This document shows, in pieces, positions 1-4,410 of a stretch of 4,410 nt of DNA. The number at the start of each line of letters is the position of its first letter. Within the stretch, counting starts at the first letter, position 1. The position numbers and the translations under genes were made by a program. The stretch is from a virus (lineage: Duplodnaviria; Heunggongvirae; Uroviricota; Caudoviricetes), in the IMG/VR virus record IMGVR_UViG_2228664000_000050, positions 1-4,410 of that record; one strand, given 5' to 3'. The notes below the pieces were generated by a model, which worked only from the letters and a program-made list of their open reading frames with translations, was not told the DNA's origin and ran no database searches.

Positions 1-59
1 GATCGGGTGCCTTCGTTGACTTCAACAACGCGCACCCCGTGGTGGTAATCCTGAGCCAT
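1..59 (-). CDS. Tail sheath protein (P2 FI-like), N-terminal 19 codons only; gene continues beyond the window start
   Basis: Reverse complement of 1..59 translates MAQDYHHGVRVVEVNEGTR, matching my recollection of the conserved sheath N-terminus (MSDYHHGV...NEGTR). A strong Shine-Dalgarno AGGAGG lies about 9 nt upstream of the ATG (minus-strand coordinates 74..69). Confidence 0.6.
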   Translation of the reverse strand, partial: MAQDYHHGVRVVEVNEGTR

Positions 60-135
60 AGTGGCGAACCTCCTGATTGGATTAGGCTTCGCCCTATGTT
101 GAAGTGATTGTGCCTGACAAACAGCTAAGCGCAGT

Positions 136-153
136 TGTGTCGTTATTCACACA
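136..153 (-). promoter_or_regulatory. Candidate P2-type late-promoter activator site (TGT-N12-ACA dyad) upstream of the sheath gene
   Basis: The sequence TGTGTCGTTATTCACACA at 136..153 is an exact TGT-N12-ACA element with extended TGTG/CACA arms. It sits in the 142-bp gap between the invertase stop (202) and the sheath ATG (59), about 85 bp upstream of that ATG. No convincing -35 is present, which is typical of activator-dependent late promoters. The exact transcription start and -10 are not resolved. Confidence 0.4.
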
Positions 154-201
154 AAATAACGGTATTTGTCTGCTTGCAGGGATAATCAACATAATGCTGA
201 T

Positions 202-768
202 TCAGGGGGATTCATTGATCTTATTTGCCGGAAATTTTCTATAAATGGTAGAAACGCCTACATCAAAAATCAGTGCAATACGCTGTCTTGATTCTCCGGC
301 CTCGAGTAAACGCCCAATCTGTGCCCACTGTTCGGTAGTCAACTTAGGACGGCGTCCACCTACTCTGCCTTTGGCACGAGCTACAGCCAGCCCTGCCCTG
401 GTACGTTCAACTATCAGTTCGCGTTCCATTTCAGCCAGGGCACCCATGACATGAAAAAAGAAACGGCCCATTGGGGTACTGGTATCAATACTGTCAGTCA
501 GGCTTCTGAAATTCACACCACGCTGGCGCAACTCTTCTATCAGCGTAACAAGATGCCGCATACTGCGCCCCAACCTGTCCAGCTTCCAGACAACCAGCGT
601 GTCTCCTGCCGATAGTGTCCTGAGTAGTTTTTTCAGCCCCGGTCTGTCGGACTTAGTGCCACTGATTTTGTCCTCAAAAATCTGCTCACATCCCGCGCAG
701 TTCAGTGCATTACGTTGCAAATCGGTGTTCTGGTCATTTGTTGACACGCGTACATAGCCAATAAGCAT
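202..768 (-). CDS. Serine-recombinase DNA invertase (Pin/Gin/Cin/Hin family)
   Basis: The translation MLIGYVRVSTNDQNTDLQRNALNCAGCEQIFEDK...DRPGL...GDTLVVWKLDRLGRS...GRFFFHVMGALAEMERELIVERT has the catalytic-serine motif YVRVSTNDQ and a C-terminal helix-turn-helix (RIALIFDVGVSTIYRKF). The ORF opens at 774 (MIM...), but AGGGGG directly abuts that first ATG and lies 6 nt before the ATG at 768, which also reproduces the canonical MLIGYVRVS start. Confidence 0.93.
   Translation of the reverse strand: MLIGYVRVSTNDQNTDLQRNALNCAGCEQIFEDKISGTKSDRPGLKKLLRTLSAGDTLVVWKLDRLGRSMRHLVTLIEELRQRGVNFRSLTDSIDTSTPMGRFFFHVMGALAEMERELIVERTRAGLAVARAKGRVGGRRPKLTTEQWAQIGRLLEAGESRQRIALIFDVGVSTIYRKFPANKINESP
665..747. 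promoter_or_regulatory. Putative Fis-dependent recombinational enhancer inside the 5' part of the invertase gene
   Basis: In Hin, Gin and Cin the enhancer lies within the first ~100-150 bp of the invertase coding region. The matching region here (codons ~10-36, STNDQNTDLQRNALNCAGCEQIFED) contains a Fis-like G-N13-C 15-mer, GTGTCAACAAATGAC, on the minus strand at 733..747. The second Fis site is not clearly identifiable. Placement is by positional homology only. Confidence 0.3.
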
Positions 769-795
769 GATCATCCCCCTGAATAAAAACCGGAG

Positions 796-1302
796 ATGAT
801 GCCAGTTAGCTGTTACCTCTGCATTTTCTTAAACGTTGGTTTAGGAGAAGGTTCGGCATTACCCGTTGGTGTGCCTGTTCCGTGGCCTTCAGCTACACCA
901 CCGACAGGCTGGTTGAAATGCAATGGTGCAGCTTTTTCTGCTGAAGAATACCCGGAGCTGGCAAAGGCTTACCCGACAAATAAATTGCCTGATTTACGTG
1001 GTGAGTTTATTCGTGGCTGGGATGATGGGCGTGGAGTGGACAGTGGGCGAGCGTTATTGAGTGCTCAGAGCGATACGCTGCAAAATATTACAGGTAGCTT
1101 TTTGGATATGACCACGGGGCCAAATAATAATACTGTCGGCGCATTTACCTCTTCAACATTGACACCAAATCTCGCATCAATTGCGACAGGTGGTACATAT
1201 AAACAGGCGAATTATTATTTTGATGCATCACGTGTTGCCAGAACATCAACGGAAACACGTGCGCGAAATATTGCATTTAACTTTATCGTGAGGGCTGCAT
1301 AA
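796..1302 (+). CDS. Alternative tail-fibre C-terminal cassette (S'v-like, collar-type receptor-binding domain), promoterless and silent in this orientation; functional part begins at the crossover core near 837
   Basis: The frame opens just after a TAA at 784..786 and covers site 1. It encodes GLGEGSALPVGVPVPWPSATPPTGWLKCNGAAFSAEEYPELAKAY...LPDLRGEFIRGWDDGRGVDSGR, the pattern of the phage tail collar domain (CNG...YP.L...LPDLRG.F.RG). The only ribosome-binding candidate is a GGAG 0-3 nt from the ATGs, too close to be convincing. Its stop overlaps the downstream tfa start (TAATG at 1300..1304). Confidence 0.8.
   Translation: MMPVSCYLCIFLNVGLGEGSALPVGVPVPWPSATPPTGWLKCNGAAFSAEEYPELAKAYPTNKLPDLRGEFIRGWDDGRGVDSGRALLSAQSDTLQNITGSFLDMTTGPNNNTVGAFTSSTLTPNLASIATGGTYKQANYYFDASRVARTSTETRARNIAFNFIVRAA
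824..849. repeat. Invertase crossover site 1 (hix/gix/cix/pix-like 26-bp imperfect dyad) at the invertase-proximal border of the invertible segment
   Basis: TTTTCTTAAACG-TT-GGTTTAGGAGAA. Its reverse complement, TTCTCCTAAACCAACGTTTAAGAAAA, matches site 2 at 15 of the first 17 positions and fits the family pattern TTCTnnnAAACC-AA-GGTTTnnGAnAA. The central dinucleotide is TT at 836..837. Confidence 0.8.
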
Positions 1303-1904
1303 TGGATAACGCTGTATTAAATAGCGAGCTTATTGCCACGAAGGCGGGGAATATTACCGTCTATAGCTATGATGGTGAAACTCGGGAATATATTTCCACT
1401 TCAAATGAATATCTTGCCGTTGGTGTTGGTATCCCGGCATATTCCTGTCTGGATGAACCTGGTATACATAAGGCTGGTTATGCAATCTGCCGTTCGGCAG
1501 ATTTAAACTCATGGGAATATGTGCCAGACCATCGCGGTGAAATCGTCTATAACACCGAAACGGGAGACGCCAAAGAAATCACAGCTCCGGGTGATTACCC
1601 CGAAAATACAACCACTATCGCCCCGTTAACGCCATACGATAAATGGGATGGTGAGAAATGGGTGACGGATACCGAGGCACAGCATAGCGCCGCAGTAGAT
1701 GCAGCAGAAGCACAGCGCCAGTCGCTGATGGATACAGCAATGGCTTCCATTAGTCTGATTCAGTTGAAATTACAGGCCGGACGGAAGTTGACGCAGGCAG
1801 AAACAACCCGACTTAACGCCGTGCTGGATTACATTGACGCGGTGACGGCAACAGATACCAGCACAGCGCCGGACGTCATCTGGCCTGGACTGCCGGAGGC
1901 GTAG
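1302..1904 (+). CDS. Tail fibre assembly chaperone (Tfa/U'-like), cognate to the silent alternative cassette
   Basis: This 200-aa ORF is coupled to the upstream cassette by a TAATG overlap. Its C-terminus, TATDTSTAPDVIWPGLPEA, carries the conserved Tfa C-terminal motif that is also present in the other chaperone. Confidence 0.8.
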   Translation: MDNAVLNSELIATKAGNITVYSYDGETREYISTSNEYLAVGVGIPAYSCLDEPGIHKAGYAICRSADLNSWEYVPDHRGEIVYNTETGDAKEITAPGDYPENTTTIAPLTPYDKWDGEKWVTDTEAQHSAAVDAAEAQRQSLMDTAMASISLIQLKLQAGRKLTQAETTRLNAVLDYIDAVTATDTSTAPDVIWPGLPEA

Positions 1905-2319
1905 GCCATTCAATATCGGGTGCTGTTGAAGTATCAACACGCATCAGCAGCACACGGTATTTCTTCCATTGGGTGAGAGTTGAAGTTTCTTCATCAGTTG
2001 CAATGCCCGCATCAACAGCATCCTGACGCCAGGATATTTCACTGTCAGCTTTTGCACGAAATGTGGCTTTCATGTTTTCTGCATCTGATATTTTCTGTTC
2101 TGGTGAAAGCGGCGGCTCATCAACCCATGCAAGGGCCCCTGAAACCATTCTCAGCATTTTTCCTGTTGGCTTATTTCCCCCATTAAATCTGACAGCATCC
2201 TCATCGCTGATTTCAATACCATCCTGCGGCCATGTCCCCTCCTTGATATAACTTTCGTATAGCGCTGCGTTGTAGATTGCATTTTCGGAAGGGCTGTAAA
2301 CACTTTTAACTTTATTCAT
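1876..2319 (-). CDS. Tail fibre assembly chaperone (P2 G / Mu U-like), cognate to the currently expressed fibre
   Basis: This 147-aa ORF starts 4 bp after the tail-fibre stop, with GGGAGA about 6 nt upstream of its ATG. Its C-terminus, LLMRVDTSTAPDIEWPTPPAVQAR, resembles the P2 G C-terminus (RVDPANPEWP). Its 3' end overlaps the convergent tfa' by 29 bp (1876..1904). Confidence 0.85.
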   Translation of the reverse strand: MNKVKSVYSPSENAIYNAALYESYIKEGTWPQDGIEISDEDAVRFNGGNKPTGKMLRMVSGALAWVDEPPLSPEQKISDAENMKATFRAKADSEISWRQDAVDAGIATDEETSTLTQWKKYRVLLMRVDTSTAPDIEWPTPPAVQAR

Positions 2320-2323
2320 TCTG

Positions 2324-3763
2324 TTATCTCCCTTTCGCTATATAGCAAAGATTAAACCCACCGCTACCTGACATACGGGCTGTAAAACCCGTTCTTGAAG
2401 TACCAGTTGAGTTAACTCCATAAGCAGGCATGGTTGTTGGAGAAAGCAGAGACTCCTGGATATCTGCCATTGTCAGTGTAATTGATTCGACCCGCGCGGG
2501 GAAAGGTAGCGGGAAAACAACATTCGTCCCTGTCTGTCCAACGGGGAAACCGAAAATACCCCATTGTGTAATTACCCCATCCGGCCCCTTACTCCATCCA
2601 GATTTAGGATTCGGCCAGTCTGCTGCTCCAGAGTGCCCCGTTGTAAAACTACTCATATCTGGTACTTGCCCGGTATCCGTTCCGACGTTCCTCGTTGCCG
2701 CTTCTCCCAAACCAAGGTATGTGAGAAGACCAGCTACATCCTTTCCACTCAAATTGGTAAGCGTATTGTCCAGCGGTTGTTTACCTGACAGCGCATTAAG
2801 CATTGTCGTGGCAAAGTTCGGATCATTCCCCAGTGCCGCCGCCAGTTCGTTCAGTGTATCCAGTGCAGCAGGTGCAGAACCCACCATTCCTGCAATCGCC
2901 GATTTCACAAAAGCCGTAGTGGCAATCTGTGTATTGTTGACCGACTGCGCCGCAGTAGGTGCTGTTGGCGTTCCGGTGAGTGCCGGACTCGACAGCGGCG
3001 CTTTTAGTGCCAGCGCATTGTTAATGGTGGTACTGAATTTCGGGTCATTGTTAATGGCTGCGGCAATTTCTTTCAGTGTGTCCAGCGTGGCTGGCGCACC
3101 GTTAATCAGAGCAGTAATAGCGGCCTGAACAAACTCAGTGGTCGCAATCCGCGTGGTGTTATTTCCTGCTGCAGGCGTCGGCGCTTTTGGTTCTCCGGTA
3201 AATGTCGGATTATGTTTCTGCGCATACTGGGTATGAGGATCTTGTGCGGCAATGTGGTTTCTCATCTGGTCATCCACATACAGCTTTAATTCCAGGACTT
3301 CATCATCCACGTATTTACGGGTTGCCAGCACTACAGCAGGGTCGATTTTCAGGGTGATATTGTCCGTACTGCTGGTAATCAGCACCATGCGCACGGTCTG
3401 GGTGCGCCCGCTGCCTTCAGCCAGTTGCGGCTTATAGCTTTCCGGGCAGTTGCCCACGGCAATCAATGCCCCGGACTCATCAAACAGGCCCACTTCACGT
3501 ATCCACCAACCGCCCTCGTTTTCAGGGATCACCTGTTCAGCAATAATCTGGCTACTGTTCTGCGGGTCGATATAAAGCATATTCAGCGCAGCCCGGCGTT
3601 TCTCATTTACCAGTGCCGTCTGCTTTGCGTCCGGCGTTGGCAATACTCCGCCGCCATCGCCCACCGCCATATGGGTAATTTTTAGCGGCACACCGAGCGC
3701 GGCGGCGCTGGCAAGTTTCGCCGCGCCAATATCCGTCAGCAGGGTATAAAATTTTGTGCTCAT
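2324..3763 (-). CDS. Tail fibre protein (P2 H-like), 479 aa: constant N-terminal shaft (aa 1-350) fused to the currently expressed variable C-terminal cassette (aa 351-479)
   Basis: The N-terminus MSTKFYTLLTDIGAAKLA...MAVGDGGG...GGWWIREVGLFDESGALIAVGN...ESYKPQLAEGSGR and the block LNELAAALGNDPNFATTMLNALSGKQP closely match P2 H-type fibres. The start overlaps the gpI-like stop (ATGA). Crossover site 2 lies at codons 346-354. Confidence 0.95.
   Translation of the reverse strand: MSTKFYTLLTDIGAAKLASAAALGVPLKITHMAVGDGGGVLPTPDAKQTALVNEKRRAALNMLYIDPQNSSQIIAEQVIPENEGGWWIREVGLFDESGALIAVGNCPESYKPQLAEGSGRTQTVRMVLITSSTDNITLKIDPAVVLATRKYVDDEVLELKLYVDDQMRNHIAAQDPHTQYAQKHNPTFTGEPKAPTPAAGNNTTRIATTEFVQAAITALINGAPATLDTLKEIAAAINNDPKFSTTINNALALKAPLSSPALTGTPTAPTAAQSVNNTQIATTAFVKSAIAGMVGSAPAALDTLNELAAALGNDPNFATTMLNALSGKQPLDNTLTNLSGKDVAGLLTYLGLGEAATRNVGTDTGQVPDMSSFTTGHSGAADWPNPKSGWSKGPDGVITQWGIFGFPVGQTGTNVVFPLPFPARVESITLTMADIQESLLSPTTMPAYGVNSTGTSRTGFTARMSGSGGFNLCYIAKGR
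2702..2727. repeat. Invertase crossover site 2 (hix/gix/cix/pix-like) embedded in the tail-fibre coding sequence at the constant/variable junction
   Basis: TTCTCCCAAACC-AA-GGTATGTGAGAA. The left half and core match the family pattern, while the right half is degenerate, as expected for a site constrained by coding sequence. It lies over codons LLTYLGLGE; the core AA at 2714..2715 is codon positions 2-3 of Leu350 on the minus strand. Confidence 0.8.
2774..3178 (-). repeat. Diverged tandem duplication (~190 bp / ~60 aa unit, two copies) within the tail-fibre shaft (phage tail fibre repeat)
   Basis: Protein copy 1 (aa ~196-256) is TPAAGNNTTRIATTEFVQAAITALINGAPATLDTLKEIAAAINNDPKFSTTINNALALKAP. 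Copy 2 (aa ~266-330) is TPTAPTAAQSVNNTQIATTAFVKSAIAGMVGSAPAALDTLNELAAALGNDPNFATTMLNALSGKQP. DNA similarity is still visible, for example ttcagtgtgtccagcg at 3072..3087 versus ttcagtgtatccagtg at 2851..2866. Confidence 0.7.
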
Positions 3764-4365
3764 GGATTCACTCTCATTGTGTCAATAACATGGACCGCCC
3801 CGCCTTCATGCGCGGTGCCGCCGGAAATAATTGTTTCGTTGATATACGGATAGATCGTGATTTCTTCGCCAAGATAGCTGGCGGCTCCCACCCAATGCGG
3901 GCCGCTGGTCTGCAGGTTGATGGACATGCCGATCATGTGACGGCTACATGGTTTGGCATCGCTTATCAGTCGCTCAAGTTCCAGATAGGTATCTTCAGTG
4001 ATGCCCTGGTCCTGCACGCCGATATCCAGACGAAACGTGCCCGGTGCCTCTCCGATCTGCCACCACTCAATAATGCGGATCAGAAAGCCGAACGGCTCCA
4101 CCACCCGCCGCACGGCACTGGTGGTCCCTTTATGCTGATGAATATAAAAAGCATCCTTCACCACCTGGCGCTTGACGCTTTCTGTCCAGCCCTCGTCCCA
4201 GCGATCCACAGAGAACGCCCAGGCGAGATAAGGCAGGAAACTGATCGGACAGGTTGCCGGATTCCACAAGTCACGCAGCGGCACCTGCAGATCAGAAATC
4301 CCGCTACAGGTCTGCGCCAGTCGGCGCTCCAGTGAAGTTGAACCCGGTGGCAGCAGACTATTCAT
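3760..4365 (-). CDS. Baseplate/tail protein, P2 gpI-like (201 aa)
   Basis: The translation contains LWNPATCP...LPYLAWAFSVDRWDEGW...HKGT...RRVVEPFGFL...WW...PGTFRLDIGV...GITE...ERLISDAKPCSRH, matching my recollection of P2 gpI. It is coupled at both ends by ATGA overlaps and sits immediately upstream of the tail fibre gene, as in P2 (J-I-H-G). Confidence 0.85.
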   Translation of the reverse strand: MNSLLPPGSTSLERRLAQTCSGISDLQVPLRDLWNPATCPISFLPYLAWAFSVDRWDEGWTESVKRQVVKDAFYIHQHKGTTSAVRRVVEPFGFLIRIIEWWQIGEAPGTFRLDIGVQDQGITEDTYLELERLISDAKPCSRHMIGMSINLQTSGPHWVGAASYLGEEITIYPYINETIISGGTAHEGGAVHVIDTMRVNP

Positions 4366-4410
4366 CCGTTCCTCCGTTGGTTACGCTCCACTGCGTACAT
4401 GATGCCGCCT
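4362..4410 (-). CDS. 3' end of the upstream gene, probably the baseplate J-like protein (C-terminal 15 codons plus stop)
   Basis: An open frame enters from the window edge on the minus strand (GGIMYAVERNQRRNG-stop), and its TGA overlaps the ATG of the gpI-like gene. Identity is inferred from P2-type gene order only; 15 residues are too few to assign by sequence. Confidence 0.45.
   Translation of the reverse strand, partial: GGIMYAVERNQRRNG

Follow-up and report, generated by a model that had tools for sequence, protein, structure and literature searches.

A Pin/Gin/Cin-type invertible segment with two unrelated fibre tips in the tail-fibre region of a P2-like prophage

A stretch of 4,410 nucleotides (IMG/VR record IMGVR_UViG_2228664000_000050, positions 1 to 4,410; hereafter the window), which represents the tail-fibre end of a P2-like prophage, is very probably to be explained as a host-range switch of the Pin/Gin/Cin type by which two unrelated tips are exchanged on one tail fibre. 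Domain assignments, crossover sites, the in-frame fusion of constant part and alternative tip and the natural occurrence of both orientations have been directly established. In the proposed mechanism, the serine invertase (202-774, minus strand) would recombine two inverted 26-bp sites and flip the segment of about 1.9 kb (1.88 kb) between them, with the first 350 codons of the fibre gene, which is located on the minus strand, remaining fixed outside the segment. In the present orientation, these 350 codons would continue into a 129-aa jellyroll tip of the gp53-like family, followed by its chaperone gene; after inversion, the same 350 codons would continue in frame via ...TYL/GLGE... (the stroke marks the junction here and below) into a 154-aa collar-type tip, followed by a TfaE-like chaperone gene. 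The exchange would thus be between the collar type of T4 gp37/gp12 and the lectin type of AP22 gp53 and the R-pyocin 'foot', and a lysogen population would release particles with two different adhesins. Inversion has been experimentally shown in the e14 element and in P2-like Escherichia coli prophages (PMC4272514; PMC12529663) and is presumably active also in this strain.

In the gene order of the window (Table 1), the two plus-strand genes, the ORF with the collar-type cassette and the second chaperone gene, are situated between the invertase gene and the minus-strand chaperone gene. Each tip cassette is followed by its own chaperone gene, with both products assigned to Caudo_TAP (PF02413) in the Pfam search. 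The chaperone encoded on the plus strand (1302-1904) is 89.5% identical to TfaE of E. coli K-12 and the chaperone encoded on the minus strand (1876-2319) is 41% identical to K-12 TfaP over its C-terminal half. The convergent chaperone genes overlap tail to tail with 29 nt of their 3' ends (1876-1904), and both proteins finish with a similar ...DTSTAPD(V/I).WP... motif, the codons of which differ between the strands. Across the whole window, a prophage of E. coli strain 22-245 is 96.8% identical, while partial matches occur to phages, among them Escherichia phage 500465-1, Cartapus and pro483.

Table 1. Features of the window, with positions counted from its first nucleotide.
Feature	Position	Strand	Basis or remark
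Tail sheath gene, 5' end, running off the window	1-59	-	Context; sheath CDS of the 96.8%-identical E. coli locus L001 ends at window position 59
Serine DNA invertase, Pin/Gin/Cin family	202-774	-	Resolvase PF00239, E=8.8e-53; HTH_7, E=1.4e-15
Presumed recombinational enhancer, 5' part of invertase gene	679-750	-	Aligns with annotated P1 Cin enhancer
ORF of 168 aa (mechanical call); codons 15-168 are the collar-type alternative tip cassette	796-1302	+	PF07484
Left 26-bp crossover site	824-849		TTTTCTTAAACG TT GGTTTAGGAGAA; core TT at 836-837
TfaE-like fibre assembly chaperone (200 aa) belonging to the collar cassette	1302-1904	+	Caudo_TAP PF02413, E=3.8e-32
Fibre assembly chaperone (147 aa) for the gp53-like tip now expressed	1876-2319	-	Caudo_TAP, E=8.4e-33
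gpH-like tail fibre, whole gene, 479 aa	2324-3763	-	PF12571 and PF21882
Variable tip (129 aa) expressed at present, of the gp53-like jellyroll 'foot' family	2324-2713	-	PF21882, E=1.8e-9
Right 26-bp crossover site	2702-2727		TTCTCCCAAACC AA GGTATGTGAGAA; core AA at 2714-2715 (TT on the other strand)
Constant part of gpH-like tail fibre, 350 aa, ending ...LLTYL before GLGE	2714-3763	-	PF12571
P2 gpI-like baseplate protein (context)	3760-4365	-	Tail_P2_I PF09684, E=1.5e-53

The segment is an invertible tail-fibre segment of the Pin/Gin/Cin type. Its crossover sites are imperfect palindromes in inverted orientation with the same core dinucleotide TT, which were first spotted by eye from their cix-like pattern and subsequently confirmed by the breakpoints against E. 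coli LF4-1 (see below). The right site reads TTCTCACATACC TT GGTTTGGGAGAA as reverse complement and in this form equals the left site at 20 of 26 positions, with agreement at 13 of the 14 positions of inner half and core. Both sites fit the pattern AAACC TT GGTTT..GAGAA of the P1 cix sites (cixL and cixR) and of the repeats of e14, with the e14 repeat sequence being TTGGTTTGGGAGAAGG (PMC12529663). Due to their imperfect arms, the crossover sites went unreported in a generic inverted-repeat search that used a seed of 9 nt.

Codons 1-14 of the ORF next to the invertase (796-837) are located outside the segment, with the ORF crossing the left site, and the cassette proper consists of positions 838-1302, equivalent to 154 codons and a stop. 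Upon in-silico inversion, the 350 constant codons (3763 down to 2714) and 838-1302 form an open frame of 504 codons with the junction ...LLTYL/GLGEGSALPVG..., compared to ...LLTYL/GLGEAATRNVG... in the present gene; the fibre is accordingly 479 aa long as found and 504 aa long when inverted, with the 350-aa N-terminus common to both. The junction peptide GLGE is coded by the crossover site itself. In a 50%-cluster library, the opening stretch GLG(E/T/D)AAKR.VGTG..QIPDMS.F is seen in many distant gp53-like tips. As distant tips begin with the same stretch, the crossover-site peptide and the linker that follows are conserved far beyond this prophage, and a conserved junction linker would, as expected, fit with what an exchangeable cassette junction predicts.

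The invertase gene adjoins the segment and encodes a protein with a resolvase catalytic domain and a C-terminal HTH domain (PF02796, E=1.4e-15), which is 86.7% identical to K-12 PinE, 77.3% identical to P1 Cin and 74.6% identical to Mu Gin and likely starts with the ATG at 768 (MLIGYVRVS...). By analogy with P1, positions 679-750 are presumed to be the recombinational enhancer, which is Fis-dependent in segments of this type, with their conservation not being independent evidence for this role as the stretch is equally conserved coding sequence. A perfect 12-nt inverted repeat that flanks the invertase ORF (200-211, ATTCAGGGGGAT; 773-784, ATCCCCCTGAAT) was considered as a functional element and rejected; it has probably arisen by chance, because approximately 0.6 such pairs are expected in 4.4 kb by our own estimate and because the region in common with the e14-like relative begins only at position 230. 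On the minus strand (788-807), a weak terminator-like hairpin followed by a T run separates the segment from the start of the invertase gene, in a scan that retrieved 11 terminator-like sites versus 4.4 expected from shuffles; transcription running on from the fibre operon into that gene might be restricted by this hairpin. Outside the window, an E. coli protein of 214 aa (P0205) consists of the first approximately 95 residues of a Pin-type recombinase joined directly to the gp53-like tip (...RGV/GLGEAATRN...). The join may be due to a deletion from a pseudo-site in the invertase gene to a crossover site, or else to faulty assembly of the sequence.

The inverted state is realized in nature. 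E. coli LF4-1 harbours the same prophage in the other orientation, with a 504-aa fibre followed by tfaE, with the same two chaperone proteins and with the gp53-like cassette and its chaperone parked beside the recombinase. Compared to LF4-1, window positions 833-2718 are found in one orientation and positions 1-850 and 2701-4410 in the other; the orientation breaks, at 833-850 and 2701-2718, are inside the two sites. A synthetic inverted junction of 915 nt, composed of constant part and collar cassette, is found end to end in one alignment in six complete E. coli genomes with 91-97% identity. At the level of at least 80% coverage, nine E. coli records contain the window as found and nine contain the inverted junction, the six genomes with an end-to-end match being among the latter nine.

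The cassette beside the invertase encodes a collar-type tip, with Pfam Collar (PF07484) recognized at residues 25-72 of the ORF 796-1302 with 57.2 bits versus a cut-off of 24 (E=1.6e-15) over profile positions 1-57 of 57; both motif stretches on which the sequence-only reading had based its collar assignment are present in this plus-strand ORF. Among solved structures in the PDB, the collar-tip profile matches the short tail fibre 9cuy (6.6e-31), which was traced to phage phiTE (PMC11972413), the T4 gp37 tip 2xgf (9.2e-21) and T4 gp12 (1ocy with 9.4e-6; 1ocy, 1pdi and 5iv5 ranging from 9.4e-6 to 1.4e-3). The similarity to gp37 comprises both ends of the tip including the final ...NIAFN(Y/F)IVR strand, with ...NIAFNFIVRAA aligned to ...NIAFNYIVRLA in a second gp37 stretch and with the last strand of the tip matching the last strand of gp37. 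When relatives are compared, the collar tip hardly varies at residues 11-73 and 129-154, while residues 78-128 are variable; presumably, the tip has a gp37-like layout in which the conserved ends would be the collar and the variable middle the binding part. Compared to the T4 gp37 tip, however, the collar tip of the window is far shorter, has no His-x-His repeats and possesses a middle of 50 unrelated residues.

On the other hand, the expressed 479-aa fibre (2324-3763, minus strand) shows Phage_tail_fib (PF12571) at residues 1-150 (E=5.9e-65) and Gp53-like_C (PF21882) at residues 394-478, with 38.5 bits versus a cut-off of 24.9 (E=1.8e-9) and profile positions 3-83 of 84 covered. No Collar match was obtained for this fibre in the Pfam search, in agreement with the earlier observation that the expressed tip is devoid of collar motifs; PF21882 is found instead of PF07484. 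A gp53-like profile built from 23 diverse tips of the 50%-cluster library matches AP22 gp53 (4mtm, 7.1e-11), the R1 and R2 pyocin fibres (6cxb, 4.8e-9; 6cl5, 6cl6 and 6ct8, about 1e-7 with a maximum of 1.7e-7) and the short fibre gp92 (9zd7, 8.9e-8) in the PDB, with all these matches at the extreme C-terminus of the chain.

That the two tips represent unrelated domain families with different folds is well supported at the level of sequence comparison, with the statement on folds resting on homology to solved structures and their published description (PMC6363177). The view that the tips are not variants of one domain, already put forward from the sequence, has been borne out by the domain search of both C-terminal cassettes, which assigned one to PF07484 and the other to PF21882 and thus not to one family, by separate structure matches and by an alignment restricted to GLGE. 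AlphaFold2 models of both tips were discarded due to poor confidence (mean pLDDT of 50.6 in the collar and 33.7 in the gp53-like case), with shallow alignments of near-identical homologues as input and a native state that is a trimer.

Very distant homology of the tips, with a common fold and a switch that alters specificity within one adhesin type only, might be considered as both tips use Caudo_TAP chaperones and have the GLGE junction peptide in common, the latter, however, coded by the crossover site itself. BLASTP between the two tips gave no match; hhalign aligned GLGE only, with a probability of 0.2% for profiles of close relatives and 0.8% for the diverse gp53-like profile; the PDB match lists of the two tip profiles do not overlap; and a published comparison of 2XGF (T4 gp37), built of collar, needle and head, with 4MTM (AP22 gp53), a lectin foot of jellyroll, discoidin-like type, found no sequence or tertiary similarity (Salazar et al., PMC6363177), all of which makes a single fold very improbable. 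Equally, the collar cassette can be suspected to be a decaying remnant of a switch out of use, considering that K-12 annotates its own stfE as a pseudogene and that the recombinase is frameshifted in at least one close relative (L006). This reading, hardly conceivable among those weighed here, is already contradicted by a frame open over all 154 codons, by 99.4% identity of the cassette to residues 350-504 of the intact 504-aa LF4-1 fibre, by 100% identity to the tips of 251-aa fibres on dozens of contigs, by an intact chaperone gene and an intact invertase and by the occurrence of both orientations among near-identical prophages. The inverted state of LF4-1 with its 99.4% identical tip indicates that the collar cassette is intact and used, and the degenerate remnant that the sequence-only reading had named as a refuting finding was not encountered. 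Two unrelated tips are the preferred reading.

A further question is whether the ORF beside the invertase is silent, as had been proposed from the sequence together with the statements that it has no credible start of its own and should be expressed only after inversion. The ORF is likely silent, because any product would be without the constant 350 aa, to which the N-terminal Phage_tail_fib domain (PF12571) belongs; the proposal of a silent cassette therefore stands as likely. The statement on the start was inexact, as two consecutive ATG codons, at 796 and 799, follow a GGAG at 792-795; with a gap of 0-3 nt, this makes a poor ribosome-binding site. Translation from its own ATG would yield a free 168-aa collar-domain protein of use to the lysogen, which might mask a surface receptor as proposed for the product of the corresponding ORF position in e14, a reading which is unlikely but can refer, besides the two ATG codons directly after the GGAG, to the annotation of the equivalent ORF in relatives as a 167-aa CDS by RefSeq and to the finding that StfE2 of inverted e14, located at the same ORF position, blocks T2 adsorption when overproduced from a plasmid (Kirigo et al., PMC12529663). 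In that study, however, collar-type StfE itself was 'not effective and sometimes deleterious', while qRT-PCR data are given for pinQ only (PMC12529663). Furthermore, a distance between GGAG and ATG below the normal ribosome-binding-site spacing, an upstream region that is the antisense strand of the invertase gene and free variation of the N-terminal 14 residues among relatives argue against such a free protein. A consensus scan of the plus strand upstream of the ORF equally shows no promoter-like site, with promoter-like sites in total being no more numerous than in shuffled sequence so that the scan says little either way. More specifically, low-level production of a free tip domain from the ORF beside the invertase, of the collar type or, after inversion, of the gp53-like type, with coating or masking of a surface receptor of the lysogen as consequence, is quite unlikely; if true, one inversion would switch both the host range of the released phage and the protection of the lysogen against other phages, and such a role would extend from the cryptic e14 to a P2-like prophage that is intact. 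Within the preferred reading of a host-range switch, the cassette next to the invertase presumably makes no functional product.

A switch between receptor classes, which had been deduced from the different folds of the tips, is not supported as stated. T4 gp12 binds the LPS core and gp37 binds OmpC or LPS. The feet of R pyocins have been proposed to bind LPS core sugars (PMC6363177). As both tip families include LPS-core binders, a receptor of another class does not follow from another fold, and the sequence itself points to no particular receptor. The two tips might still bind different receptors.

The arrangement is long known and ordinary, a classical invertible tail-fibre system, and the same domain pairing is present in the e14 element of K-12. 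The P segment of e14 (pinE, stfP-tfaP / tfaE-stfE) has the same gene order as the window, starting with an invertase gene that points away from the segment and continuing with the parked cassette, a pair of chaperone genes arranged tail to tail and the expressed tip; besides the identities of PinE and TfaE reported above, the crossover sequence is nearly the same. Equally, StfP is a Gp53-like_C protein (8.4e-16) and StfE a Collar protein (1.4e-15); in the MG1655 reference, it is the Gp53-like_C tip that is expressed and the Collar tip that is parked. At the level of individual tips, the K-12 StfE tip and the collar tip of the window are 55.7% identical overall with a different middle, while BLAST detects no similarity between the gp53-like tip of the window and the tip of K-12 StfP. 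The constant part of the e14 type, however, comprises only 97 aa and is located in a tail module with YmfQ and baseplate J/gp47-type genes, unlike the 350-aa N-terminus of the P2 gpH type in the P2-like tail module of the window.

Like the window, the G segment of Mu (Gin) and the C segment of P1 (Cin) combine a serine invertase and 26-bp inverted sites with a constant fibre N-terminus and alternative C-termini, each with its own Caudo_TAP chaperone, at 75-77% identity of the invertases to the one of the window. In contrast, the variable parts of Mu and P1 are much longer (about 320-530 aa) and belong to other Pfam families, and cin of P1 reads towards the segment. At the Mu locus (L004, 1959-3473 and 4568-5554), full-length S displays Gp34_trimer and Phage_fiber_2 as opposed to gp37_C in the parked S' ORF, such that S and S' belong to different Pfam families, while both chaperones are Caudo_TAP. 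Invertible tail-fibre loci that combine, as in the window, an invertase with alternative C-termini of the fibre are present in P2-like prophages of E. coli such as those of EPEC E2348/69, with one EPEC locus carrying three repeats and three alternative C-termini, compared to the two sites and two tips of the window. In P2-like E. coli prophages, coexisting orientations have been demonstrated by sequencing and PCR (PMC4272514), and programmed inversions in tail fibre genes are the subject of a survey across bacteria (PMC9881135). With respect to the tips themselves, T4 gp37/gp12 and AP22 gp53 with the R-type pyocin foot are sequence relatives of the two tips of the window.

An e14-like prophage at dusA in strain 47-1826 (L006, 3395-5889) corresponds to window positions 230-2726 with 93.7% identity, the segment alone with 99.2%, and the similarity stops at 2726, the outer edge of the right crossover site. 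The 97-aa constant part of the e14 type bears the same two tips, 100% identical at the protein level, in fibres of 251 aa and 226 aa (P0004, P0125). An interpretation of these 226-aa and 251-aa homologues as mis-called internal starts of the long fibre was rejected, as they have a distinct 97-aa N-terminus identical to the one of e14 StfP. Judged from these sequences, invertase and segment appear to constitute a portable module that moves between unrelated tail modules.

The significance beyond a correct annotation is small. What many E. coli genomes list next to the recombinase as a 'phage tail protein' CDS of 167 or 168 aa is not a gene in its own right but half of a fibre gene in its parked state. 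For phage engineering, the segment is a natural example of a single fibre shaft on which adhesins of the collar and of the lectin type, together with their respective chaperones, are interchangeable at the junction ...L/GLGE. With respect to the biology of these prophages, one portable module of invertase and segment would serve two unrelated types of tail.
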